Below, piece after piece: positions 4,298 through 62,265 of a stretch of DNA of 64,000 bases; within the stretch, counting starts at the first letter, position 1, and each line of letters begins with the position of its first letter. The DNA comes from Acidaminobacter sp. (GTDB lineage Bacteria > Bacillota > Clostridia > Peptostreptococcales > Acidaminobacteraceae), in assembly GCF_030247605.1 (NCBI RefSeq), contig NZ_JAOTSB010000018.1, positions 2,463 through 66,462 of the forward strand, given 5' to 3'. Under the pieces are notes generated by a model. It had not been told where the DNA came from. It made no database searches and saw nothing but the letters and a program-made list of their open reading frames with translations. The position numbers and the translations under genes were made by a program.

Positions 4298-6526
4298 TCA
4301 AGTTCTGAGGAATTTTTTCTCAATTTCCTGCCGTTCCATTCGCACCACGAGTGGCCGTCCGTGTGGGCAGGTATAAGGCGATTCAAGGGTTCTGAGCTCT
4401 TTGATCAATTGGGCCGCTTCAAAGGGCGTCAAGGCGTCGTTGGATTTGACAGCGGCCTTACAGGCCATGCTCATCAACCGGTCTTCAATGGGTTTCTGTG
4501 CGGCAGCGCGCAGTTCGTGGGCACTTTCTTTGTCCTTCAGCTGCTCAAAGAACCGCTTGGTACCAGGGACATCAAACAGCATTGGGACCTCTCTTAAGAT
4601 GAAGTCCGTTTCGCCGAAAGGTTCCAGGGTGAAACCAATTTTTTCAAGGGTCTCACTTCTCTCGCCCAGGAGCAGCGCTGTCGCTTGGTCGCATTCAATC
4701 AGAATGGGTTCGACTAAAAGCTGCCTCACGACTTCGCGACGCTCATAGTCGCGTTTCATCTTGGCATAAAGTATTTTTTCATGGGCGGCATGCTGATCTA
4801 TCAAAAGGATATGATTTTCCTTTTCATACATCAGGAAGGATTTGAAGAGCTGGCCAACATAGCGCGCGCTGTCATAAAGCGTCTCAGTGGGGGCCGTTTC
4901 GGTTGGTCTTGCGGCTTCTTCAAGTCCCGCAAATCTTGTCTCCGGGATCACGAGATTTTCGAGCAGCGTCGAGTCGAATCGGATGGGTTCGGAGTGCTTT
5001 GTAAAATCACGCCCGCCATAGCTGCTGCCCGACTCCCGGCTGACATTTGAGGTTTGTGTGACAGGCACATTTTTGGAGTTGGTGCCAGTCACGGAGATGG
5101 CGCTTGGGTCTGTCTCCGGATCTAAGTCGGTGCCCGTCACCGAGTCAGTATGGGTGCCTGTCACCAAATTCGTTTTGGTGTCTGACACTGATTCTGTTTT
5201 GGTGCCTGTCACTGAATTGAGTTTAGTGTCTGACCCCAAAGTGGATTCGGTGCCAGAGCTTGAACTATCTCGCCTTATATTTATGCCATTATATGGTGAT
5301 TCCGTAGGGCTTTTTGGTCTGTTGAACGAATCCAGAGCAGGTACTGGTGCCGATGGTCCCGGTTCGAAGGCCGGTTTCGCCACAAAACTTTTAACGGGAA
5401 CCTGCTGCCGCTGCTCAAGGGCCCGCTTCAACTCAACGGATAAAAAGTTCCGAAGGGCATCTTCCCTCTCGAACTTGATCTCCGTCTTTTGGGGATGAAT
5501 ATTGACATCACAGGCATCAGGCTGGATTTCCAGGTAAAGGAGCACCGCCGGAAACCGGCTTCCCGGAAGCAGTCCCTGATAGGCATATTGAATCGCGTCC
5601 AGCGTCATGCGGCTCTTCACGTAGCGCCCGTTGACAAAGGTCATCTGATAGTTGCGGTTGCCCCGTGTATAGTCAATCTTGGAGGCCCAGCCTGTCACTT
5701 TGACAAGCTCATTTTCAAAGCTGAACTCGAATAAAGAACGTGTCAGCCCACGCTCTAAAGTGGCGTAAGCCGCTGAAAAAACCTTATCATCTCCCGGCGT
5801 CTTGAAGACCAGCCTCTTATCGAGGACGAACTGAAAGGAAATCCCGGGATGGGACAAGGCCAGCTTGGTCATCAAGTCACTGATATAAGCGGCTTCTGAG
5901 GCCGCAGATTTCATAAACTTCAGCCGTGCCGGCGTATTGAAGAAAAGATCTTTGACGACAACGGTCGTACCGTGGGCCGCAGAGGTTGCTCTGCGGTCAG
6001 TCTCCCGGCCGCCGGCCAGGGTCATGTGAAGGCCTTCCTCGTCCTTTTGCCGCCGCGTGGTCAGCTCCAGATACGACACAGCTGCAATGCTGGACAGCGC
6101 TTCACCTCTAAAACCCAAAGTCCTGAGGGACACCAGGTCGTCTATGGAGGCGACTTTGCTGGTAGCGTGGCGTTCAAAAGCCAGGGGCACATCCTCCGGA
6201 TTCATGCCGCAGCCGTTGTCTGTGACGCGAATGTACTTCTTCCCGCCCTGCTCGACCTCGACGACAATACGGGTAGACCCGGCATCAATCGCGTTTTCAA
6301 CCAATTCTTTGATGACCGCCGCAGGGCGTTCGACAACCTCGCCGGCAGCGATTTTATCCGATACTTGAGGTGACAGTCTTTGGATCCGTTTGGGCTCGGG
6401 GAGGGTATGGGCTTCGGTGACCACTGGATGAATCTGTTCTGGTACGGATGAAGTCAAGACATCATCACCTTCATGTCCAGCGAGCTGTTCTTCATTCATT
6501 GATTTGTTTGGTTGGGTCATCCTCAT
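4298..6526 (-). CDS. mutL: DNA mismatch repair protein MutL with an expanded repetitive linker
   Basis: IAAGEVVERPAAVIKELVENAIDAG GHKL ATPase N-terminus and a C-terminal dimerisation/endonuclease domain (DQHAAHEKI). 742 aa, against roughly 615-630 aa for E. coli and B. subtilis MutL. Confidence 0.95.
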   Translation of the reverse strand: MRMTQPNKSMNEEQLAGHEGDDVLTSSVPEQIHPVVTEAHTLPEPKRIQRLSPQVSDKIAAGEVVERPAAVIKELVENAIDAGSTRIVVEVEQGGKKYIRVTDNGCGMNPEDVPLAFERHATSKVASIDDLVSLRTLGFRGEALSSIAAVSYLELTTRRQKDEEGLHMTLAGGRETDRRATSAAHGTTVVVKDLFFNTPARLKFMKSAASEAAYISDLMTKLALSHPGISFQFVLDKRLVFKTPGDDKVFSAAYATLERGLTRSLFEFSFENELVKVTGWASKIDYTRGNRNYQMTFVNGRYVKSRMTLDAIQYAYQGLLPGSRFPAVLLYLEIQPDACDVNIHPQKTEIKFEREDALRNFLSVELKRALEQRQQVPVKSFVAKPAFEPGPSAPVPALDSFNRPKSPTESPYNGINIRRDSSSSGTESTLGSDTKLNSVTGTKTESVSDTKTNLVTGTHTDSVTGTDLDPETDPSAISVTGTNSKNVPVTQTSNVSRESGSSYGGRDFTKHSEPIRFDSTLLENLVIPETRFAGLEEAARPTETAPTETLYDSARYVGQLFKSFLMYEKENHILLIDQHAAHEKILYAKMKRDYERREVVRQLLVEPILIECDQATALLLGERSETLEKIGFTLEPFGETDFILREVPMLFDVPGTKRFFEQLKDKESAHELRAAAQKPIEDRLMSMACKAAVKSNDALTPFEAAQLIKELRTLESPYTCPHGRPLVVRMERQEIEKKFLRT
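5058..5262. repeat. 24-bp phased array (9 units) with core GTGNCNGNCAC, in frame inside the mutL linker
   Basis: Cores start at 5058, 5082, 5106, 5130, 5154, 5178, 5202, 5226 and 5250, exactly 24 bp apart. The first core is GTGACAGGCAC and the last is GTGCCAGAGCT, as in the intergenic arrays. Confidence 0.85.
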
Positions 6527-9206: not shown

Positions 9207-10679
9207 CTAAGCCAGCACTTCCACTATATCCCCAACCAGGGAGAAATTTTTAGACTTCGTGATCTTGACCATGGCAAAGGCCCCGACTAAGTCCAGGGGT
9301 CCCTCAAACGCCACCAGATGATTATGGCGGGTGCGGCCAATCAGCGTGCCTTCCCCATCCTTGCCCTGCTGCTCAACCAGAACCTCGTATGTCTCACCCA
9401 CGTGGACTTTGTTCTTCTCGATCACAATTTCGTTCATCCGCTTCAGCATCCGGTCAAACCGCGCGTGCTTCACGTCCTCCGGCACCTGGTCCTCACGCTC
9501 CGCAGCCGGCGTGCCCGTCCGGATGGAATACATAAACGTAAACGCCGAATCATAGCGGGCCTGCTCGATCAGTGACATGGTCTCTTCGTGGTCCTCCTCC
9601 GTCTCCCCGGGAAAACCGACAATAATGTCCGTCGTTACCGCAAGTCCAGGGATGCGCTTTCGCGCCCGCTCCAGAATGTCCAGATACTGCCCTTTGGTGT
9701 AGTGCCGGTTCATGGCCTTCAGCACCCGGTCGCTCCCAGACTGAACCGGCAGGTGCAGGTACTCGCAGATGTTTTCACAGCGAGCCATGACTTCGATCAG
9801 CTCGTCTGAAATGTCCTTAGGATGGCTGGTCATAAACCGGATCCGTTTTAGTCCTTCAATTTTGCTGACGCGCTCCAGGAGTGACGGGAAGTCTTTTACA
9901 GCCTCAAAGCCTTCTCCAGTGCTTTCTGCCGATGGTTCCAGCCCCCGCCCATAAGAATTGACATTTTGCCCGAGCAGCGTCACTTCTTTGGCGCCGTCCC
10001 GAACCAGTCCCTCGATTTCCCTGACTATGGACTCCGGCGTCCTGCTCCGTTCCCGACCCCGTGTATAAGGCACAATACAATAGGTGCAGAAGTTATTGCA
10101 GCCGTACATGATGTTGACATACGCCTTGATGCCCACTTTGCGCGTCACCGGAAGGCCTTCTATGACTTCGCCCTCCGAATCCCAAACATCCACCAGCAGA
10201 TGTGAGGACGTATAGGTCTGTGACAGCAGATGCGGGAACTGATGAAGATTGTGCGTCCCAAAAACCAGGGATACATGGGCATACTTAGCCTTGATTTCCT
10301 CAACCACGTGAGGCTGCTGCATCATGCAGCCGCAGACAACAATACGCAGATCCGGATTCTTTTTTTTAAGCGGTTTCAGCGCGCCAAGATTGCCATAGAC
10401 TCTGAGCTCAGCGTTTTCTCTGACACAGCAGGTGTTGAAAATTATGAGATCAGCATCTTCCTTCTTCAGTGCTTCCACATAACCCATTTCTCCGAGCATG
10501 CCCGTCAATTTTTCAGAGTCGTGCTCATTCATCTGACAGCCATAGGTCATGATCATGAACCGCCGCTTCCGGTCGTGGTCGACCTCGAACTGCGCATTCA
10601 GATTTCGTTGTATTTGAATATAATAGGACTGGTCTGCGTAAGCAGACGCAGAAAGTGGCGGCCTTTCAGTGCGTTTCAA
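9207..10679 (-). CDS. miaB: tRNA-i6A37 methylthiotransferase
   Basis: YGCQMNEHDSE UPF0004 domain, radical SAM CNNFCTYC, C-terminal TRAM domain. Confidence 0.93.
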   Translation of the reverse strand: MKRTERPPLSASAYADQSYYIQIQRNLNAQFEVDHDRKRRFMIMTYGCQMNEHDSEKLTGMLGEMGYVEALKKEDADLIIFNTCCVRENAELRVYGNLGALKPLKKKNPDLRIVVCGCMMQQPHVVEEIKAKYAHVSLVFGTHNLHQFPHLLSQTYTSSHLLVDVWDSEGEVIEGLPVTRKVGIKAYVNIMYGCNNFCTYCIVPYTRGRERSRTPESIVREIEGLVRDGAKEVTLLGQNVNSYGRGLEPSAESTGEGFEAVKDFPSLLERVSKIEGLKRIRFMTSHPKDISDELIEVMARCENICEYLHLPVQSGSDRVLKAMNRHYTKGQYLDILERARKRIPGLAVTTDIIVGFPGETEEDHEETMSLIEQARYDSAFTFMYSIRTGTPAAEREDQVPEDVKHARFDRMLKRMNEIVIEKNKVHVGETYEVLVEQQGKDGEGTLIGRTRHNHLVAFEGPLDLVGAFAMVKITKSKNFSLVGDIVEVLA

Positions 10680-14576: not shown

Positions 14577-15167
14577 CTATGCCCTCCCCTTGTAAAGCTC
14601 AATGTGAGCATAGACATTTTTTAGAATCTCAAACACCGCATTTTCATAATCCGGACCGGTGGGTTTGCCCTCAAACTGAAGGGTTACCAAGGGATGGATA
14701 ATGATCCGCACTTTTGAGAAAAATTTATAGGTTGAATCTATGGTCACCGGCTGAATGGGTACCCCAGCCTTGTGTGCAATCATGCCCACACCCGCTTTGG
14801 GCGGCAGCGGGGTCAGACCCGGATTACGCGTTCCTTCCGCAAAAATCAGCACGCTTTCCCCACCTTTGAGAAACCGCAGCGCCGCCTTGACCGCGCCAAT
14901 ATCGTTGCCGGTCCGGTCCACGGGGAACCCGCCGCAGCCCCTGAAGAACCAATCGAAAAGCCGGTTGCTGAACAGCTCTTTTTTAGCCATGAAGCGGATG
15001 TAGTCCGGGATAAAGGTGCCAAACACCAGCGGATCTTTGTAATCGATATGATTGGGACAGACGACTTTGGGCTGAGCGGGGTCCCAGTTTTCGCGTCCAA
15101 CGACCTCTACCCGGTAGATCACCCGGTAAAGCACATTGAAAATGAATTTGATAAATACCTTCAGCAC
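14577..15167 (-). CDS. plsC: 1-acyl-sn-glycerol-3-phosphate acyltransferase
   Basis: NHIDYKDP (NHxxxxD) and FAEGTR acyltransferase motifs. Confidence 0.9.
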   Translation of the reverse strand: MLKVFIKFIFNVLYRVIYRVEVVGRENWDPAQPKVVCPNHIDYKDPLVFGTFIPDYIRFMAKKELFSNRLFDWFFRGCGGFPVDRTGNDIGAVKAALRFLKGGESVLIFAEGTRNPGLTPLPPKAGVGMIAHKAGVPIQPVTIDSTYKFFSKVRIIIHPLVTLQFEGKPTGPDYENAVFEILKNVYAHIELYKGRA

Positions 15168-21415: not shown

Positions 21416-21575
21416 GTGACAGGCGCCAGTTTGAAGTGAGTGTCTGACACTGAGTTGAAGTGAGTGTCTGACACTGAGTTGAAGTGAGTGTCTGACACTG
21501 AGTTGAAGTGAGTGTCTGACACTGAAATCGTTTCGGTGCCAGAGCTTGCGAGAATGTTTCTCAATAAATGTCGTT
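21416..21575. repeat. 24-bp phased array (6 units) plus conserved tail
   Basis: Cores at 21416 (GTGACAGGCGC), at 21440, 21464, 21488 and 21512 (GTGTCTGACAC, four identical 24-bp units) and at 21536 (GTGCCAGAGCT). Tail is TGCGAGAATGTTTCTCAATAAATG. Confidence 0.9.
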
Positions 21576-22982: not shown

Positions 22983-25099
22983 CAGTCGGTCTCCCCTTCT
23001 TCATCGTAGTGGTCTTCTTTGTGGTTTTTGTTTTGGTTATCGCCGCGGGCTTGTGGGTTTTGGACCTGGGAACCATCGGCAGCGGTATTGGTGTCTTGGG
23101 ACTGAGACGTCTCATACCAGTGCTCCAGCAGGGACTCCTGAATCAATTCCTCTTCAGTTTCCGATGGTTCCCTGCGCCGAATCAGGATGCCGCTGAACAT
23201 CTCGTCCTGAACCACACGAACGCGCTTCAGCTTCAAAAGCTCAAGAAGGGCCAGAAACGTGGTTACAACGACGTTGCGGGTTGCGCCGCCCTCGAACAGG
23301 GCTTCAAAGGAAATGTCGTTCACTTCCTTGAGGCGGGCCGTCAGCGCCTTGATGGCGTCCTCCACGGCGTAGGGCTCACGGTTCAGGGTAGAGAAAAAAT
23401 GCTCTCTGTGGGTATCGGTGCGATCCAGTTTGGTGAGCACCCGTTTTAGGGCTTCTGTGAGAAGGTCAATCTCGGTAGGCTCGTTGAGGGTTTCCGGATT
23501 CTGAGGGAGGATTTCAGAGAGATCTGAGGCCTCCCGAGTGAAATAAGCGCCGTCCTGCAGCTCGAGGCCACTGAGGAGCCTTGCGGCTTCCTTGTAGCGC
23601 TTGTACTCGACGAGTTTGGTGACGAGCTCCGTACGCGGGTCCTCGGCCACATCCCAGGCTTCGAAAATGCCCGCTTCACGGTCCGGCAGCAGCATCATGG
23701 ACTTGATCTCAAGGAGCGTGGCGGCCATGACCAGGAATTCGCCGGCAATGTCGACGCGTGCCGTTTCCATATGGATCAGGTAGTCGAGGTACTGGGTGCA
23801 GAGGGTGGCCACAGGGATATCGTAGATATCGATTTCGTTGTCCTGGATCAGGTGGAGCAGGAGGTCCATAGGGCCTTCGAAGGCATCCAGCTTGACGGAG
23901 TAGGCGGCATTGCCGGATGGGGATGGTGAATGGGATTCGGGTTGGGTTGGGTGATCATCGGCATCTGGTTGGTCTTTTGGGGGTGTTGCAAGTTCGGGTT
24001 TATGTGGAAGGACCTCGTGGAGGTTCAGTTGCTGGGCCAGGGCGTCTGGGGACGTGGTGTTCAGTGCGCGGGCCGCATTTTTGAGTTTGCGGGGCAGCGA
24101 GCACTGTCGGAAGCGCTCTGCGAAGTCCGGGGAGGTTTGGGAAAAATAACCGAACAGGTGACTCGCCTTGTCGTCACCGCAGAGACCGGGGGCGTGCTCG
24201 ACGACCCGGGCAAAGGCTATGGCCTGGATCAGGGCCTCAGAGGTTGGTGCTGTGTTGTCCTCTGTTGTGATCAGAAGACCTAGGTCGAGCATCAAGCGAA
24301 CAGCCTCTTCGCAGTGGCCGTCACTGAAGTTGAGGAACAGCTCGCGCATAATGCGGTCATTGGTCAGGGTTTTCAGTACACCCGCTTCTATGGCTTCTTT
24401 CATTTGTTTTTCTGTTGTGTCCACCGGGGTCAGACCTACTCGGGCCATGTAGCGGACCGCGCGGTACAGACGGGTGGGATCGTCGTAAAAGCTCTGGTCA
24501 TGAAGGACTCTAAGGGCTTGGGCTTTCAAGTCGTCGAGGCCTTTTAGGGGATCCAGCAGCTGGATCAGGATCGTGCGGGTGGTGCTTAAGTCGCATGTTT
24601 CAGGGTCCACATAGTCCAGGAGTTCCAGCTCGAGGGCCATGGCATTGACGGTGAAGTCCCGGCGTTTCAGGTCGTCCTCAATGGTGCCCGGCGTGACTGT
24701 GGGAAGCTGGCCAGGAGCTTCATAGCGTTCGCTGCGGGCGGTGATCAGATCGATCTCCCCTGTGTCCAGGATGCCTGAGGCGGTCATGAAGCGGTCGTAG
24801 TACTGCCAGTCAATGTTAGTGAGGCGGTCGGTTAGTTTGGTGATCTCGCCTTCTATCACCACGTCCAGGTCGCGGACGTCGCTGCCTAGAATCAGGTCAC
24901 GGACAGCACCGCCGACGAGGAAGACTCTGAGGGTGGCGTTTGGAGTTTCGGATTTATAATCTTCAGCTGCGAGCAGAAGCTGGGTCAAAATGCCGTCGTG
25001 GGCGCGATTCAGTGCGTTGACCCTGTCTTCAAGGTGCGCAATGAGTTCTTCCAGCGGCAGTGCCAGCAGCGATTGAGTTTGAGTGATTAGGTCGGTCAC
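22982..25099 (-). CDS. scpA: Fusion protein: CCA-adding/poly(A) polymerase family nucleotidyltransferase (N-terminal about 390 aa) + ScpA kleisin (C-terminal about 300 aa)
   Basis: N-terminal part has LVGGAVRDLILG..VRDLDV, RSERY, DLKRRDFTVNAMA and FYDDPTRLYRAVRY. After a P/Q/D/S-rich linker comes YSVKLDAFEGPMDLLLHLIQDNEIDIYDIPV (ScpA N-terminus). Single 705-codon frame, ending where scpB starts. Confidence 0.8.
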   Translation of the reverse strand: MTDLITQTQSLLALPLEELIAHLEDRVNALNRAHDGILTQLLLAAEDYKSETPNATLRVFLVGGAVRDLILGSDVRDLDVVIEGEITKLTDRLTNIDWQYYDRFMTASGILDTGEIDLITARSERYEAPGQLPTVTPGTIEDDLKRRDFTVNAMALELELLDYVDPETCDLSTTRTILIQLLDPLKGLDDLKAQALRVLHDQSFYDDPTRLYRAVRYMARVGLTPVDTTEKQMKEAIEAGVLKTLTNDRIMRELFLNFSDGHCEEAVRLMLDLGLLITTEDNTAPTSEALIQAIAFARVVEHAPGLCGDDKASHLFGYFSQTSPDFAERFRQCSLPRKLKNAARALNTTSPDALAQQLNLHEVLPHKPELATPPKDQPDADDHPTQPESHSPSPSGNAAYSVKLDAFEGPMDLLLHLIQDNEIDIYDIPVATLCTQYLDYLIHMETARVDIAGEFLVMAATLLEIKSMMLLPDREAGIFEAWDVAEDPRTELVTKLVEYKRYKEAARLLSGLELQDGAYFTREASDLSEILPQNPETLNEPTEIDLLTEALKRVLTKLDRTDTHREHFFSTLNREPYAVEDAIKALTARLKEVNDISFEALFEGGATRNVVVTTFLALLELLKLKRVRVVQDEMFSGILIRRREPSETEEELIQESLLEHWYETSQSQDTNTAADGSQVQNPQARGDNQNKNHKEDHYDEEGETD

Positions 25100-27137: not shown

Positions 27138-27354
27138 GGAAGCGTCTCCCACCGAAATTTTTGCCAATGATTACAAACGGTTTGAGATGGAAGGAGGTCT
27201 CTCTGACACCAATTTCCGTTTTGGCTGTAATTTGAGCCCACGCCCTCTCTGTGAAGTCGTTACATTGTTTGGGCATTGACATTGTGATAAAATTTACAAA
27301 GATAAATGGACTCTGAAAACAGGCTTCGAGGCGCATTGGCAAAATTTTGAGTTT

Positions 27355-27435
27355 GTGACGTGGACAACTTCAGAGTTGGTGACTCGGACAACTTTCAATC
27401 CGGTGCCAGAGCATGCGTGAATAGTTCTCAATTAG
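27355..27435. repeat. 24-bp phased array (3 units) plus conserved tail, upstream of the sensor kinase
   Basis: Cores at 27355 (GTGACGTGGAC), 27379 (GTGACTCGGAC) and 27403 (GTGCCAGAGCA). The tail TGCGTGAATAGTTCTCAATTA matches the tail at 21547. Confidence 0.8.
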
Positions 27436-27491
27436 GTTATCAGTTGCTGTGTCCCTGTCTTTCTACGCCACCGCAAGAAAGGAAATCGCCT

Positions 27492-30044
27492 ATGACTAAG
27501 CGTTTCAATAGATTGAGGTTTTCTATCTCTGTCCTTTTCTCATTGATCTTTGCATTGCTCTTTGCCCTGGGATGGAGCTGTCTCCCCGCTTTTGCGACTG
27601 CACCGGATACGGAGGTGGATGAAGGGACCATCGGCAGCGCACCGTCCTATACGCATTCCCAGCCGGGCCTGACAGAGCTCGTTCTGCAGCTGCGCTGGGA
27701 CCACCAGTTCCAGTTCGCCGGCTATTACGCCGCCCAGTGGATGGGCTACTATGAAGAGGAAGGCCTGAATGTCGACATTCGATCTGCTTTCACGGCACAG
27801 AGTCCGGACATCCTGGATGCTGCCCTTGAGGTCGAGGAAGGACGCGCGGACTTTGGCGTGGGTGCCGCGAACCTCATGATGGCACAGGACGACGGCATGG
27901 ATCTGATCCTTGTGGCCTCCATCTTTCAGCGCAGCGCTGTCGAATACGTCACCTTGCTGGAAGACCGCGGCAACACCGTGTTCGACCTGTCCCAGCTGCA
28001 TATCGCCAGAAGGCCGGGGGATCTTCTGGACCTGGAGCTTCAGGCTCTCCTCGCGAGTGAGGGCATTGCGCCCTATGCCACCCGAACCACGGACATCACC
28101 AGGGACTTCACCCTGGAGGACCTGATCAACAAAACCTTTGACGTCGTTCCAGACTTCCTTGGACAGATTCCCTACGCCGCAGAAAAGGCCGGCGTTCCCG
28201 TTAAGGTGATCCGGCCGGCGGAGCACGGCATTGATTTTTATGGGGACACGCTTTTTACATCAGGGAAACTTGCCCGGAGCAATCCGGAGCTCGTTGAGCG
28301 GTTCCGGCGCGCGAGCATCAAGGGCTGGTTTTATGCTCTGGAGCATCCCATGGAGATCTCGGAGCTGATCGTGACGCGGCTGGCAGCCCCGGACGCGGCC
28401 CCGGAGAGGCAAGCCGCCCTCCTCGACTTCAACCTTTACCAGGCCGGGAAGGTCCTGGAGCTGACCCACTATCCCATTGTCGAGGTCGGCAACATCAACC
28501 CCTTCCGGTGGATTAAAATGGCAGAGGCCATGAAGAGCCTGGGCATGATTGAGGAAGTGCCGGACCTGGACGCCATGATCTTTGACTACGATCAGGTCAA
28601 GATGACTCAGCTTGAAAACACCCGTAAAAACCTGGCCTATGCCTTTCTGATCCTGACTGCCCTAATTACCTTTTTTTTCGTCGTTTACCTCAAGCGCCGC
28701 AATACCCTCCTCCTGAAGGAGATCGACGACCGCCAGCTCGCCGAGCGGCAGCTGGTCCTCAGCAACGCGCGTTATGAAACCATTTTCCGCAGCTCCGTTC
28801 TGGGGATCACTGTGACGGATTCGGAGGGCAACATCCGCCATGTGAACGACGCCTGGTGCAGCATGACCGGGTACACAGCGGATGAGCTTAGCGGCATGAA
28901 TATCAACCAGCTGATCGCAGCCGACAGCAGGGACCTGGACGCCGGCCTGCACCGCGACCTTATGGAAGGCCGCATTTCCAGCTATTCCATGGAGAAAAAG
29001 TATCTCCGAAAGCCAGATCCCCAAAATCCTGACCAGGAAGACCACTTCCACGGCCGCATGGTTCTCACCTGCATCTGGGATTCCGGCGCTGACGCCATGC
29101 TCAATATGAGTATGGTGACGGACATCACCAAGGAAGTGAGAGATGCCCAGGCGGTGCGCCGGGCGGAAGAGCGCTTTCGGAAGATCATTGGTCAAGTCGC
29201 TCAGGAAATAGGCGGTTCAGCCGTGTCCCTCGTGGGAAGTCCGGTGGCCGGCGAGCTGTCCATGAATCTGGAGGAGATCAACCTCGAGCTGGAGCGGCTC
29301 TTTACCCGGGAGCTGGAGGAAAACCGGCGCAAGGACGCGCTGATTCGCTATCAGGGCCGCATGGCGGCCATGGGCGAGATGATTGGCAGCATAGCCCACC
29401 AGTGGCGCCAGCCCCTGCACACCCTGCGCCTGGTCCTCATGAACCTCAGGGATCCCGGGAACGATCCGGATTACGTGGAGTCCTGCTACCTCAAGGCGAA
29501 CGCGCTGATCCGCCGCATGTCGGAGACCATTGACGACTTCCGGTATTTCTCAAATCCCCGAACTGAGCCCCGCGCCTTCACTGTGGCGGAGTCGGTGCGG
29601 CTGGTGCAGGGCCTGGTGGACGAGCAGCTGCGCGTGTCCGGCATCACCCTTTCGACCGAGAATTTAGAGAGCCTTCAGCCGATGGTCGGTTTCGACAACC
29701 AATTCTCCCACGTTCTCTTCAACCTGATCTCCAACGCTATAGATGCCCTGAAGCACAACCCGCCCGGGAAGCCGCGTACCATCCGCGTCGCTGGGGAACA
29801 GCGTGAGATGTTGCTGACCGTGCGCATTGAGGACTCAGGACCGGGGATACCGTCAACAGATGCGGACAGCGTTTTTGAAATGTACTATACGACCAAAGAA
29901 GCCCAGGGCGGAACCGGACTTGGATTGCCTATGGCCAGATCCATCATAGAAACCGCTTTTGGCGGACGCCTCACCCTGGTGCCTGCTGAAGCCGGCTGTG
30001 CGTTTGAAATTGAGGTACCGGTTAGTGGAAAGGTTGGTGAATGA
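27492..30044 (+). CDS. Sensor histidine kinase with extracytoplasmic SBP-like (NMT1/SsuA-type) domain, TM, PAS, dimerisation/His and HATPase_c
   Basis: Signal/TM MTKRFNRLRFSISVLFSLIFALLF after an AAAGGAAA RBS. Then QFQFAGYYAAQWMGYYEEEGL (SBP fold), a PAS segment, the H-box IGSIAHQWRQPL and the G-box GGTGLGL. The ORF-track start at 27360 would translate the repeat array. Confidence 0.88.
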   Translation: MTKRFNRLRFSISVLFSLIFALLFALGWSCLPAFATAPDTEVDEGTIGSAPSYTHSQPGLTELVLQLRWDHQFQFAGYYAAQWMGYYEEEGLNVDIRSAFTAQSPDILDAALEVEEGRADFGVGAANLMMAQDDGMDLILVASIFQRSAVEYVTLLEDRGNTVFDLSQLHIARRPGDLLDLELQALLASEGIAPYATRTTDITRDFTLEDLINKTFDVVPDFLGQIPYAAEKAGVPVKVIRPAEHGIDFYGDTLFTSGKLARSNPELVERFRRASIKGWFYALEHPMEISELIVTRLAAPDAAPERQAALLDFNLYQAGKVLELTHYPIVEVGNINPFRWIKMAEAMKSLGMIEEVPDLDAMIFDYDQVKMTQLENTRKNLAYAFLILTALITFFFVVYLKRRNTLLLKEIDDRQLAERQLVLSNARYETIFRSSVLGITVTDSEGNIRHVNDAWCSMTGYTADELSGMNINQLIAADSRDLDAGLHRDLMEGRISSYSMEKKYLRKPDPQNPDQEDHFHGRMVLTCIWDSGADAMLNMSMVTDITKEVRDAQAVRRAEERFRKIIGQVAQEIGGSAVSLVGSPVAGELSMNLEEINLELERLFTRELEENRRKDALIRYQGRMAAMGEMIGSIAHQWRQPLHTLRLVLMNLRDPGNDPDYVESCYLKANALIRRMSETIDDFRYFSNPRTEPRAFTVAESVRLVQGLVDEQLRVSGITLSTENLESLQPMVGFDNQFSHVLFNLISNAIDALKHNPPGKPRTIRVAGEQREMLLTVRIEDSGPGIPSTDADSVFEMYYTTKEAQGGTGLGLPMARSIIETAFGGRLTLVPAEAGCAFEIEVPVSGKVGE

Positions 30045-30898: not shown

Positions 30899-31040
30899 GT
30901 GACAGTCACCAAAGTTGAGTGAGTGACAGTCACCGAAGTAGAGTGAGTGTCAGACACCGAAGTAGAGTGAGTGTCAGACACCAACCCAAAACTAGTGCCA
31001 GAGCTTCACACAATTCTCGAACAATTTATTGGTGAGTCAT
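30899..31040. repeat. 24-bp phased array (5 units) plus tail, immediately after the response regulator gene
   Basis: Cores at 30899 and 30923 (GTGACAGTCAC), at 30947 and 30971 (GTGTCAGACAC) and at 30995 (GTGCCAGAGCT). Confidence 0.88.
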
Positions 31041-31060
31041 CCAACACCACGCACACAAGC

Positions 31061-31090
31061 AAAAAACCGCCAAAAAGAGGCGGTTTTTTG
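31061..31090. terminator. Bidirectional intrinsic terminator
   Basis: AAAAAACCGCC...GGCGGTTTTTT, located between convergent genes. Confidence 0.8.
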
Positions 31091-31109
31091 CTTGAATTTT
31101 TCAATTTTC

Positions 31110-32147: not shown

Positions 32148-32202
32148 TACCTCACTACCTCACTACCCCACTACCTCACTACCCACTGCCTCAGTACCTC
32201 AC
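32148..32202. repeat. 8-bp tandem repeat TACCTCAC (about 7 units)
   Basis: TACCTCAC TACCTCAC TACCCCAC TACCTCAC TACCCAC TGCCTCAG TACCTCAC. The last units overlap the final codons and stop of pdp. Confidence 0.8.
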
Positions 32203-33516
32203 AACCCCATCCTTGCTCACCACAGCGTGAATCAGCTTCGGTACGGTTACGTCCTCCTCCTGGATCTGATAAGCCCCCAGAAGTCTCTCCCTGGCCTCCT
32301 CCAGCCGCGCGTCGCTGTTGGTGTGGAGATAAGCCAGGACCTCGCCCTGCTTCACCGCGTCCCCGACCTTTTTGACCAGCACTATGCCGGCGCCGTGGTC
32401 AATAACGCTGTCCAGGGTCTCGCGACCCGCACCTAAAATAGTGGCGCTGATGCCGACCTCATCAGATTGTATATGGGCAATGTGCCCCCCGCGCACAGAC
32501 AGAACCGGCTCAATGATCCGGGCCCCCGGAAGCGTCTCCGGCGCGTCAATCTGTGACACCTCGCCGTGCTGGGCAGCCACAAAAGCCTTCAGCTTCTCGT
32601 AAGCCGCACCGCTGCGCAGGGCATCCAGGACAAGTTCTGAGCCTTCCTCCGGAGATTTGGCCTTACCGCCCAGGTACACCATCATGCCGCCAAGTCTCAG
32701 GCAAAGTTCACGCAAATCCTGCGGCCCCTCTCCCCTCAGCGTCGCAATGGCTTCCTTGACTTCCAAGGCATTCCCTATCGCATAGCCCAGCGGCTGATCC
32801 ATCCCGGTGACCACTGCAATGACTTCCCTGCCCATACCATCGCCAATATCCACCATAATCTGCCCCAGCTCAATAGCGCCGTCCACGGTTTTCACAAAGG
32901 CGCCGCTGCCCACTTTGACGTCCAGGACAATGGCGTCACTGCCCGCCGCAAGCTTCTTGCTCATGACACTGGCCGCAATCAGGCTGACGTTGTCAACTGT
33001 CGCGGTGACGTCCCGCAGTCCGTAAAGCTTTTTATCCGCCGGCGCAATGTTCTTCGACTGGCCAATAACTGCCAGCCCCACCTCATTGACCTGTCGGATA
33101 AAGTCATCTGAAGACACCTCGACCATCAGGCCGGAGATGGACTCCAGCTTGTCCAGCGTGCCCCCCGTGTGACCGAGCCCCCTGCCGGACATCTTGGCAA
33201 CCGGCACGCCGCAAGCCGCGACCATCGGCCCAAGAAGGATCGTGGTCTTGTCCCCTACGCCGCCGGTGGAATGCTTATCCACCTTGATGCCGGCAATGCT
33301 GGAGAGGTCCACCGTATCCCCGGAATGCATGACGGCCTCGGTGAGATCTACCGTTTCGCGGCGATCCATTTTATTGAGGAAAATGGCCATCAGAAGCGCC
33401 GAAACCTGGTAATCCGGAATTTGGCCATTGGTGTAGCCCTCGACGAAAAACCGGATTTCCTCCCTGGTCAGCGTCCCGCCGTCGCGCTTTTTGTGAATGA
33501 TGTCATACATGCGCAT
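32191..33516 (-). CDS. pdp: Pyrimidine-nucleoside (thymidine) phosphorylase
   Basis: MRMYDIIHKKRDG...KHSTGGVGDK and SGRGLGHTGGTLDKLE motifs. Confidence 0.95.
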   Translation of the reverse strand: MRMYDIIHKKRDGGTLTREEIRFFVEGYTNGQIPDYQVSALLMAIFLNKMDRRETVDLTEAVMHSGDTVDLSSIAGIKVDKHSTGGVGDKTTILLGPMVAACGVPVAKMSGRGLGHTGGTLDKLESISGLMVEVSSDDFIRQVNEVGLAVIGQSKNIAPADKKLYGLRDVTATVDNVSLIAASVMSKKLAAGSDAIVLDVKVGSGAFVKTVDGAIELGQIMVDIGDGMGREVIAVVTGMDQPLGYAIGNALEVKEAIATLRGEGPQDLRELCLRLGGMMVYLGGKAKSPEEGSELVLDALRSGAAYEKLKAFVAAQHGEVSQIDAPETLPGARIIEPVLSVRGGHIAHIQSDEVGISATILGAGRETLDSVIDHGAGIVLVKKVGDAVKQGEVLAYLHTNSDARLEEARERLLGAYQIQEEDVTVPKLIHAVVSKDGVVRY

Positions 33517-50706: not shown

Positions 50707-50799
50707 CTGCTTTGTGAGATTTTTGTTGTTGGCTGATGTGTCATTGATTTAAATGCCATCCCTATCATATCACATTTTTTATATGGTTAGAAGAAGTTG

Positions 50800-50906
50800 G
50801 TGACGCGGACAGAATTTGATTTAGTGCCAGTCACTGAGTTGAGGTTGGTGTCTGACACTCAGTCAAGTTTGGTGTCTGACACTCAGTCAAGCTTGGTGTC
50901 AGGCAC
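50800..50906. repeat. 24-bp phased array (5 units), degenerate terminal unit
   Basis: Cores at 50800 (GTGACGCGGAC), 50824 (GTGCCAGTCAC), 50848 and 50872 (GTGTCTGACAC) and 50896 (GTGTCAGGCAC). Confidence 0.85.
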
Positions 50907-50961
50907 TCACTACAATTCAGACACAATTCGTGAGGCATTCCCGGTCCACCGAATCAAAAAA

Positions 50962-50999
50962 CTGCTGCAAATGGTCATTTTACAGACCATCGGCAGCAG
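50962..50999. repeat. CTGCCGATGGTC-family hairpin (degenerate left arm)
   Basis: CTGCTGCAAATGGTC - loop - GACCATCGGCAGCAG. Confidence 0.7.
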
Positions 51000-51034
51000 T
51001 AGTTTCGCTTTCCTATAAATTACTTCACCTTCAT

Positions 51035-51151: not shown

Positions 51152-51454
51152 CTAGAACAAAATCATTCGGTGATACAGCACCACCGTCGAATACGCTGCA
51201 AACGGCACCCAGGCCAGCGTCACCAAAGACCGTCCGATCTTATGCCGCAGCTGCCACAGGAGCACGAGAAGAAGCGGCACAAGAAACAGCTTCACAAGCG
51301 GAAACTCGAATGTGCCCACCATAGGCGCCAAAAACGGATTGGCTTCCTTAAACCCCCGCTCCAAAGCTTCAAGAGTCATCAGGTAGTCCACTTTATTAAA
51401 CGCCGCAATTCCAATCAACTGCAGCCACAGCAAACGTTCCATTGATTTCGGCAT
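51152..51454 (-). CDS. DUF5658-like small membrane protein
   Basis: 100 aa; FNKVDYLMTLEALERGFKEANPFL followed by TM helices. Confidence 0.7.
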   Translation of the reverse strand: MPKSMERLLWLQLIGIAAFNKVDYLMTLEALERGFKEANPFLAPMVGTFEFPLVKLFLVPLLLVLLWQLRHKIGRSLVTLAWVPFAAYSTVVLYHRMILF

Positions 51455-51630
51455 AACCTCATCCCCAAACTAGAAAATGATCAGCCGGTTACGCCACTGG
51501 ATCCCTGCAGCCAAAGCGTCCAAATGCAGCTGCAGCTCAACTCCTCTGATGGCCTATTAATACCCAGAATGGCTGCGCGGAAAACAATCAATTGAGAATA
51601 ATTATCGATTGAAAAAGATTTTAAAACATA

Positions 51631-51660: not shown

Positions 51661-51670
51661 GTTATGTAAA

Positions 51671-51720
51671 TGTGAAACTTGGTGTCATGTGAAACTTGGT
51701 GTCAGACACCCAGTTTCACA
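51671..51720. repeat. 17-bp tandem duplication ending in a 16-bp-stem hairpin centred on GTGTCAGACAC
   Basis: TGTGAAACTTGGTGTCA x2, then GACACCCAGTTTCACA, about 150 nt upstream of the MFS gene. Confidence 0.8.
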
Positions 51721-55300: not shown

Positions 55301-55528
55301 GGTGATCCCTCCCAAACGGATATTCATACATTTAAAAACCAATTGATAACGCTGATAAAATTAACCGAATGATCATGAACGTGTTCGAATTAGTTAATTT
55401 ATTGCTTAACAAGATTTATTCGAAGCGTTATCCTAAAACAACTTATTGAGGATTTTTACCCATCGCATAAATAATTATTCATATTTTTCTTAACCAAGCG
55501 GTGCCAGAAATTTCGAATTCCCCCCCCC

Positions 55529-62075: not shown

Positions 62076-62265
62076 CCGGTTATTGCCTATGAGTCATCAC
62101 AAAAACAGCGGTGATCCCATAGACACGTCAGACTCTTTCTTTCCAAAACGGGAGGCTGTGGGATTTCTCCCCTAACCCAGGTTGGTGACCATAGCAAAAA
62201 GTAAGCCGTAGGTCATTCAACTCGAAATGAGCGCGATATTCAGTTGGCAGTTTTGACATGTCTAG

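Follow-up and report, generated by a model that had tools for sequence, protein, structure and literature searches.

A lineage-restricted family of 24-bp-phased repeat arrays with a constrained dyad-symmetric core in Acidaminobacter

The window analyzed here, a stretch of 64,000 nt of DNA from an Acidaminobacter sp. (Clostridia, order Peptostreptococcales), carries five arrays of short direct repeats in a 24-bp register, all on the + strand (5058-5262, 21416-21546, 27355-27413, 30899-31005, and 50800-50906). The arrays, the gene that hosts the first of them, and a solo unit are as follows.

Array 1, 5058..5262, + strand: eight 24-bp units and a closing half-unit, GGTGCCAGAGCT; inside mutL
mutL, host of array 1, 4298..6526, - strand: translation, open reading frame (ORF) of 742 amino acids (aa); Pfam MutL domains
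Array 2, 21416..21568, + strand: one GTGACAGGCGC unit, four identical GTGTCTGACAC units, a closing half-unit at 21535-21546, and the tail GCGAGAATGTTTCTCAAT
Array 3, 27355..27435, + strand: two GTGAC(G/T)(T/C)GGACAACTT units, a closing half-unit at 27402-27413, and the tail GCGTGAATAGTTCTCAAT
Array 4, 30899..31030, + strand: two GTGACAGTCAC units, two GTGTCAGACAC units, a closing half-unit at 30994-31005, and a partly related tail
Array 5, 50800..50906, + strand: units GTGACGCGGAC, GTGCCAGTCAC, GTGTCTGACAC twice, and GTGTCAGGCAC; without a closing half-unit
Solo unit, 51670..51717, no strand assigned: a 35-bp palindrome, ATGTGAAACTTGGTGTC-A-GACACCCAGTTTCACAT, whose left arm of 17 bp is duplicated

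Array 1 is antisense and in frame within the disordered linker of MutL, a protein with a 100% match to one from an Acidaminobacter sp. metagenome-assembled genome (MAG), and encodes 8-aa repeats of the SVTGTxTx type. Array 2 lies in the gap between two genes of the - strand, bounded by the stop of the one for a pseudouridine synthase and the start of the one for a GNAT acetyltransferase. Array 3 has a xanthine permease gene on one side and an NMT1-PAS histidine kinase gene (27489-30044) on the other, and falls between a promoter-like box and the latter gene's ribosome-binding site. Its body units at 27355 and 27379, GTGACGTGGAC and GTGACTCGGAC, are of a second type, GTGACGCGGACAACTT, found again as the opening unit of array 5. 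Array 4 is placed between the stop of a response-regulator gene and a bidirectional terminator at 31056-31094, with a rubrerythrin gene beyond, and array 5 separates a DUF5658 gene from a prolidase gene, both on the - strand. These neighbors are unrelated housekeeping genes, and no rep, par, partition, or transposition gene adjoins any of the five arrays. The 35-bp palindrome of the solo unit (51683-51717) is centered on GTGTCAGACAC and occupies the divergent region between a gene controlled by a cyclic di-GMP (c-di-GMP)-II riboswitch and an MFS transporter gene.

The core pattern GTGNCNGNCAC occurs 20 times in the window, compared with 0.93 ± 0.96 times in dinucleotide-preserving shuffles, none of which reached 20 in 100 trials. 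Moreover, 15 core pairs (with at most one mismatch) are spaced by exactly 24 bp, and none by any other distance from 18 to 30 bp. Frequency and phase exclude a chance origin of the arrays. A GTGAC-type core opens all five; the closing string GTGCCAGAGC(T/A), also written GGTGCCAGAGC(T/A), ends four; and a tail, GCG(A/T)GAAT(G/A)(T/G)TTCTCAAT, is common to arrays 2 and 3. Units 2-5 of array 2 are identical, and Tandem Repeats Finder reported 4.0 identical copies at 21431-21525. An earlier reading of the window (the original prediction) had described five 24-bp-phased arrays, a GTGAC-type opening core, a closing core shared by four arrays with a similar tail in two, and four identical units in array 2, all of which our analysis reproduced. 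Its statement that every core conforms to one GTGNC-N-GNCAC pattern was incorrect, as the body units of array 3 do not fit GTGNCNGNCAC, and the possible solo terminal unit that it placed at 55501 was rejected: this site has three mismatches in 14 bases, and the window holds 11 such matches where 6.9 are expected, which is the level of chance.

Arrays of the same kind are found well beyond the window. We scanned genomes, one for each species, for three cores phased at 24 bp and obtained at least 106 loci, and a metagenome scan for three GTGTCNGACAC cores returned 51, of which 38 were assigned to the Acidaminobacter family; the latter come mostly from one project and hold arrays of 3-14 units. 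The Acidaminobacter MAG CAYQDM01 carries the family on at least seven contigs, including the closing unit and the GTGACGCGGAC unit. In related genomes and metagenomes, searches of the kind proposed alongside the original prediction yielded ∼60 more arrays, with 2-14 units each, which we compiled into a catalog. The same arrays recur in assemblies from four independent sources (NCBI, ENA, JGI, and Logan), which speaks against an assembly artifact.

Within this catalog, we denoted GTGACGCGGAC-type units as G, GTGCC.GTCAC or GTGAC.GGCAC units as A, GTGTCWGACAC units as P, and the closing half-unit as T. The ∼60 arrays share a polarity in which the unit types follow the order G, A, P, T, for instance GAPAT, GAPPPPT, and GPPPT. 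The closing unit GGTGCCAGAGCT is common to ∼35 arrays, the downstream flanks of most being unrelated. In a subset of elements there is a tail of ∼20 bp in one of two variants (GCGAGAATGTTTCTCAAT or GGTAATAATTCTGTAATATT), and a head, CAATAGGCGCCAGCC, is present in some. The core is 11 bp long with the consensus GTGTC-W-GACAC and invariant G1, T2, G3, C5, G7, C9, A10, and C11. The 13-bp spacer is only loosely conserved, being homogenized inside each array and differing between arrays. Its loose consensus, YNANTTNRANTKR, is itself dyad-symmetric (A14/T22, T16-17, and A19-20 are conserved), and the ideal unit is a 23-bp palindrome.

To place the family, we searched the literature with core strings, which returned primer sequences only and no described family. 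There was no blastn match among 72,556 plasmids or in phages, and Rfam gave no match at any array, only c-di-GMP-II and molybdenum cofactor (Moco) riboswitches elsewhere in the window. GTGTCWGACAC does not appear in the supplement on the BRE repeats, where sequences may be split across lines. A scan of viral contigs returned four unrelated 12-bp coding-type repeats. The family is a real, undescribed, lineage-restricted interspersed repeat of a kind of element that is already known. The original prediction knew of no described family with this architecture; our results from the literature, Rfam, plasmids, and phages agree as to the exact sequence. The general kind, a composite small interspersed repeat that contains a tandem internal module, is well known.

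Comparison of orthologous sites showed that the arrays differ in unit number among relatives. MutL orthologs with 84-94% protein identity have lengths of 740, 732, 724, 732, 718, and 721 aa. The linker accounts for nearly all of this difference and varies in 8-aa steps, with the change in units visible in the DNA. The mutL array in these relatives has its closing unit at the same end, while unit numbers and types differ. A. hydrogenoformans (80% nucleotide identity) has an unrelated MutL linker and no mutL array, and no core was found anywhere in 22 kb. Three other sets of orthologous sites contain 3, 3, and 9 units; 5, 11, and at least 6 units; and 4, 6, 6, and 5 units.

The region of arrays 2-4 was retrieved from relatives via histidine kinase orthologs, with identities given here as nucleotide identity to the window. 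In loci L162 (91.7%) and L163 (86.4%), the corresponding sites are filled by arrays that share their closing unit and tail with those of the window, yet the bodies are made of GTGACGCGGAC units and not of palindromic ones. Closing unit and tail are kept at the array 2 and array 4 sites of L162; the body at the array 2 site of L162 is of GTGACGCGGAC type, as are the bodies of the array 4 orthologs in L162, L163, and L170. In L170 and L171 (82.7%), array 4 is present and the array 3 site is empty, with alignable flanks on both sides. Arrays 2, 3, and 4 are all absent from L165 (74.1%), where a 34-bp spacer stands at the array 2 site, and arrays 3 and 4 are absent from L172 (70.6%), a locus that does not reach the array 2 site. 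In sum, sites are filled in relatives at 83-92% nucleotide identity, one is empty at 83%, and all those checked are empty at 71-74%. Alignment of the filled array 3 site (window and L162) with the empty one (L170) gives an insertion of ∼150-165 bp, the junctions of which are hidden by ∼17% flank divergence, and no target-site duplication could be made out in this alignment. Since filled and empty sites as well as body types differ among relatives, the sites appear to have been occupied at different times, and the array bodies turn over quickly. The arrays are tandem direct repeats at many loci with polymorphic copy number, that is, a variable-number tandem repeat (VNTR) or minisatellite. Accordingly, the original prediction's suggestion of a VNTR-type mobile repeat, with a comparison of unit counts between strains as its check, is supported both by the differences in unit number at orthologous sites (such as 3, 3, and 9) and by the sites that are filled or empty depending on the relative.

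Four genes contain in-frame arrays: mutL, cbiG, aroB, and one for a sulfatase. Pfam domains flank these arrays on either side or adjoin them. The CbiG copy is near the C-terminus in three orthologous loci, the AroB copy is in a loop ahead of the Pfam DHQ_synthase domain, and the sulfatase copy is near the end of the sulfatase domain. These arrays are read in different frames and strands, as SVTGT in mutL and, in the three other genes, as LVSDTEFG (cbiG), ECLTPTSN, and ECLTPGSN (sulfatase). Intergenic arrays are in divergent (∼13), tandem (∼22), and convergent (∼9) contexts by crude ORF calls, close to random expectation; several end 13-35 nt upstream of a ribosome-binding site, and others sit between a stop codon and a terminator. 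One could argue for a protein-coding repeat on the grounds that the period is a multiple of 3, that the arrays are open in some frames, giving ORFs of 70-150 aa, and that high-GC genomes commonly contain generic 12- or 24-bp coding repeats in which GTGNCNGNCAC occurs. However, most arrays are intergenic, the in-gene copies do not keep to one frame or strand, and the family has non-coding ends in common. A coding repeat, chance low-complexity sequence, and an assembly artifact, the latter two being contradicted by the core counts, the 24-bp pairs, and the independent assemblies, are refuted as explanations of the family as a whole, and we give them practically no credence. Separately, stop-free array frames give rise to spurious ORFs of 70-150 aa in the window (5058-5498 and 50797-51018, both on the + strand) and in many other loci (for instance L122 1098-1556 and L157 818-1072).

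To measure constraint on the unit, we took the inner units of 26 arrays with at least six units and scored the fraction differing from the array majority. This fraction was lowest at the eight fixed positions of the core (0.8%); it reached 9.3% at core positions 4, 6, and 8 and 12.8% in the spacer. Ascertainment cannot account for the 15-fold difference between core and spacer because the chaining step allowed up to two core mismatches. No covariation was seen at the symmetric spacer positions, none of the six pairs having Watson-Crick combinations in excess of expectation, and extended hairpins were rejected for want of compensatory changes there. The folding of arrays whose cores are palindromic is far better than that of shuffles (z = -2.3 to -6.9), while array 3, which has GTGACGCGGAC-type units only, has no folding signal (z = +1.0 and +0.5). 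Given the absence of covariation and the unfolded array 3, hairpin formation is not the reason for the core constraint, and we infer recognition of the core by protein. The core is thus probably a recognition site for a sequence-specific protein, and that part of the original prediction which had a dimeric protein bind the 5-1-5 core remains plausible in light of the core and spacer rates, unlike its iteron or centromere part, which is unsupported.

The folding signal could also be taken to mean that the arrays are structured RNA modules. In the manner proposed for REP/BIME, ERIC, and BOX, their tandem hairpins in untranslated regions (UTRs) would then govern translation, termination, or the stability of the mRNA. 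Such a role would suit those arrays that end shortly upstream of a ribosome-binding site or that have a stop codon on one side and a terminator on the other, and also array 3 with its place between promoter-like box and ribosome-binding site ahead of the kinase gene. Nevertheless, any tandem palindrome gives such a folding signal, the array composed of GTGACGCGGAC-type units alone is unfolded, and the core by itself forms at most a 4-bp stem with a 3-nt loop. Both orientations relative to transcription occur, compensatory covariation is missing at all six symmetric pairs, and no array has an Rfam match. We therefore regard RNA modules as very improbable, and membership in a structured RNA family was rejected on the last of these points together with the lack of covariation and the unfolded array 3. 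Two promoter assignments were rejected as well. The reverse complement of the closing unit has the TGGCAC of a sigma-54 promoter, but the -12 TTGC is missing at the right spacing in all copies inspected. As for a sigma-70 promoter in the tail, a generic scan found nothing at the arrays, and by eye there is no properly spaced hexamer pair in either tail variant.

A second palindrome bears on what the core might bind. In a histidine kinase of A. hydrogenoformans (L164 1605-1639), two GGGTCAGACCC cores lie 24 bp apart and in frame within a 40-aa insertion in a PAS-domain loop. GGGTCAGACCC is a doubly compensated variant of the core palindrome, of the GGGTC(A/T)GACCC type. GntR/FadR-type dimers bind 5-1-5 palindromes such as TGGTC-N-GACCA, and a ∼23-bp unit (AACTnnGTGTC-W-GACACnnAGTT) could likewise be a putative dimer operator, with the arrays being host-beneficial binding platforms of a regulatory, decoy, or nucleoid-organizing nature. 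Such platforms would be consistent with fixed core positions that vary 15 times less than the spacers, with a spacer consensus that is itself dyad-symmetric (A14/T22, T16-17, and A19-20), with the 35-bp solo palindrome at 51683-51717 in a divergent promoter region, with the persistence of arrays at orthologous sites across species of 83-92% identity, and with the same 24-bp period of the doubly compensated GGGTCAGACCC. On the other hand, GTGACGCGGACAACTT units are non-palindromic, yet they share arrays with palindromic units and replace them at the same site. In-frame arrays occur in four unrelated genes, the neighboring genes have no common function, and unit number is unconstrained, ranging from 2 to 14. 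Neighboring species without arrays at the same loci show no visible compensation, a 24-bp step corresponds to 2.3 helical turns and would put neighboring sites off one helix face, and no candidate binding protein was identified. On balance, we consider host-beneficial platforms unlikely, although they deserve more weight than RNA modules.

A related proposal, to which we assign a similarly low likelihood, is that the core and its symmetric flanks form the putative operator of a dedicated, co-evolved dimeric DNA-binding or DNA-processing protein, for which the arrays would be chromosome-wide binding platforms that serve the cell or the substrate of a new mode of unit duplication and spread, free of transposase and terminal inverted repeats. 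Protein and core would then have changed together, the core being GTGTC-W-GACAC here and GGGTC-W-GACCC in A. hydrogenoformans; a Lachnospiraceae lineage whose arrays have the same period of 24 bp may add GGTGCCTGTCAC as a third form.

We favor the explanation that the arrays are a high-copy, non-autonomous composite interspersed repeat of the BOX/NIME/BRE kind, specific to one Acidaminobacter species group, and we hold this to be probable. The repeat family is most likely selfish. Units would be gained and lost through slipped-strand mispairing or through unequal recombination among them, and new loci would be seeded rarely via a transposition or recombination step. The dyad-symmetric core would be the recognition site of either a mobilizing or duplicating enzyme or a host DNA-binding protein, and would stay intact while the spacers drift because of that recognition. 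The protein may be needed for unit duplication or spread, in which case selection would act at the level of the element, or it may be a host factor; a benefit to the host would not be required. The genomes tolerate elements in 5′ UTRs and 3′ regions as well as in frame within protein linkers and surface loops. A period of 24 bp corresponds to 8 codons.

Several observations weigh against an interspersed repeat that spreads in this manner. No multi-copy ORF was found among 660 ORFs in ∼400 kb of array-bearing loci, where an all-versus-all comparison paired orthologous loci only, and no partner gene or multi-copy transposase adjoins the arrays in these related loci. There are no terminal inverted repeats: GTGACGCGGAC-type elements (window 27300-27470 and L162 3810-4000) contain no inverted pairs, and pairing in the other elements is confined to the internal palindromes of the cores. 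Transposition is suggested solely by presence or absence at sites diverged by 8-30%; no new insertion was seen between near-identical strains, and differential loss may be an alternative to insertion. Species at 83-92% identity retain arrays with intact cores at the same sites, and core conservation could be due to host-level selection as easily as to element-level selection. Lastly, with respect to flanking co-directional genes, 13 arrays are antisense and 5 sense by crude ORF calls, and all five arrays in the window are on the + strand while most window genes are on the - strand. There may thus be an orientation bias relative to transcription or replication. These context counts use simple ORF calls, at least one of which (array 3) is visibly wrong.

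Similar strings in other organisms do not extend the family across phyla. Such a cross-phylum family was rejected, as most of the 81 other genome matches listed are generic 12- or 24-bp repeats in high-GC genomes. Their 24-bp spacing is set by the search pattern itself, and positions 4 and 8 are complementary in 27 of the 81, versus 25% by chance. Among the matches listed, only those in RUG781 and Achromobacter look like true separate families. The Lachnospiraceae MAG RUG781 has a separate high-copy family on at least 18 contigs (L004, L014, L024, L038, L040, L049, L050, L058, L076, L077, L079, L088, L091, L097, L099, L102, L103, and L105) with the same 12-nt core and the same 24-bp period. 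Its architecture is BIME-like, with direct GGTGCCTGTCACTTTTG+N7 units followed by at least one inverted unit that forms a 17-bp hairpin. Achromobacter spp. (L009, L028, L033, L065, and L066; also L125 and L005) have dispersed GGTGTCWGACACC palindromes with array-specific 13-nt spacers. The palindromes are spaced by 24 bp or by other distances, and downstream of genes they frequently form inverted pairs separated by ∼40-50 bp. They are probably a separate betaproteobacterial family. In two orthologous contigs from a soil metagenome with 59-62% GC (L116 1065-1486 and L151 1915-2348), GGTGTCTGACACC cores are repeated with unrelated spacers of variable length. They use the same codons each time in an apparent Pro/Ser/Thr-rich coding region with a (K/P)VSDT motif, and the cores are kept between the two contigs while the spacers differ.

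Palindromes of the GGGTC(A/T)GACCC type occur outside phased arrays too. L165 has three at irregular spacing (9842-9947) upstream of a kinase gene. In the window, exact GGGTCWGACCC is found in coding sequence at 14810, 34478, and 58042, far above shuffles, and with one mismatch at 24427 and 61788. At least one of these is in the conserved C-terminus of phosphopentomutase (LLGLTPMDH), and the excess is probably driven by codon usage. We did not count these solo cores as family members, as at least one reflects the GLTP codons of phosphopentomutase. Other features of the window include a c-di-GMP-II riboswitch at 51474-51556 (- strand), upstream of a DUF5658 gene (51152-51454), and a Moco/tungsten riboswitch at 62119-62241 (- strand), both above the Rfam gathering threshold. 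An 8-bp tandem repeat, TACCTCAC in 7.5 copies (GTGAGGTA on the - strand), at 32148-32206 overlaps the 3′ end of a pyrimidine-nucleoside phosphorylase gene ∼100 nt upstream of the rubrerythrin start codon.

With these arrays, the small interspersed repeats gain an undescribed high-copy family, found in a clostridial genus that has been little studied. Its unit is unusually short, strictly phased, and split into a constrained palindromic core and a free spacer. The 15-fold contrast in variation between core and spacer points to a candidate core-recognizing protein. Repeated in-frame expansion and contraction provide natural variation in the length of linkers and loops in proteins that are essential or have housekeeping roles, namely MutL, AroB, CbiG, a sulfatase, and a histidine kinase. 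In practical terms, the arrays break short-read assemblies, with runs of N present inside arrays in L095 and L009, create the spurious ORFs noted above, and could serve as strain-typing markers.

Lastly, we compared the family with known repeat systems. Several classes were rejected. A CRISPR array has repeats of 21-48 bp and unique spacers of similar length, whereas here the core is 11 bp and the 13-bp spacers are related to one another and homogenized within arrays. Miniature inverted-repeat transposable elements were dismissed because of the missing terminal inverted repeats and the missing partner transposase in the ∼400 kb of loci. Plasmid iterons and parC-type centromeres are likewise tandem short direct repeats and potential targets of dimeric proteins; however, they occur at one or two loci by rep or par, whereas the Acidaminobacter arrays are found at many chromosomal housekeeping loci and in genes. 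With no adjacent rep or par, five arrays in 64 kb and dozens in relatives, unrelated housekeeping neighbors, in-gene copies, and one non-palindromic unit type, membership in this class was rejected, and the iteron- or centromere-like array of the original prediction found no support.

BOX, NIME, BIME, BRE, and RPE are small interspersed repeats, some of which have tandem modules, variable units, and in-frame insertions (PMC3049150, PMC3184786, PMC3110155). REP/BIME and REPIN elements resemble the Acidaminobacter family in having a short palindromic unit that is high-copy and clustered, but here the units are direct and have a palindrome of 11 bp, a GTAG-type 5′ motif is missing, and copies occur in genes. 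No Y1 transposase (RAYT) was seen in the ∼400 kb of array-bearing loci. Membership in REP/BIME was rejected, as the alternating imperfect palindromes of ∼20-40 nt were not found and only the separate RUG781 family ends in an inverted unit. RPE elements of Rickettsia are similarly inserted in frame in genes that stay functional (PMC3184786), although they are single units of 105-146 bp and not arrays of variable unit number. BRE and MIRU are dispersed intergenic tandem repeats, and BRE also lies wholly within coding sequences with a copy number that varies by strain (PMC3110155). The BRE unit is ∼90 bp, and neither BRE nor MIRU has the core-and-spacer structure of the 24-bp unit. MIRU units are ∼46-101 bp long. 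MIRUs are co-oriented with operons, whereas the Acidaminobacter arrays are in mixed orientation and do not follow the surrounding operon (13 antisense and 5 sense in co-directional contexts).

In NIME, where RS units are flanked by dRS3, a conserved palindrome alternates with variable segments at many loci, as it does here (PMC3049150, PMC3184786). The variable segments of NIME are 50-150 bp and belong to several unrelated classes, in contrast to the strict 24-bp period and related spacers of the Acidaminobacter arrays. The 20-bp dRS3 repeat is a target of phage or IS110-type integration. No link to an integrase was found for the Acidaminobacter arrays in the loci examined.

In architecture, the family is nearest to composite small interspersed repeats, namely BOX, NIME, BRE and MIRU, and RPE. 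In BOX of S. pneumoniae, boxA-boxB(n)-boxC, end modules likewise surround variable tandem units, and BOX too is high-copy, narrow in lineage, and polymorphic among strains (PMC3049150). Both are sometimes within or fused to ORFs, and both are apparently rare transposers (PMC3049150). In our arrays, the end modules are the head CAATAGGCGCCAGCC in some copies and GGTGCCAGAGCT with or without a tail, and they enclose 2-14 units. We claim no sequence relationship, boxA, boxB, and boxC having been compared by description only. BOX has ISSpn2-like terminal inverted repeats, whereas none were found in the Acidaminobacter family, nor was a partner insertion sequence in the ∼400 kb of loci. The boxB module is 45 bp and homogeneous, while the Acidaminobacter unit is 24 bp with a constrained core and a drifting spacer, and there are at least three unit types in fixed polarity. 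Taken together, these comparisons show that the Acidaminobacter family is distinguished by its 24-bp unit, the split of that unit into core and spacer, the fixed polarity of its unit types, and termini that are not inverted.

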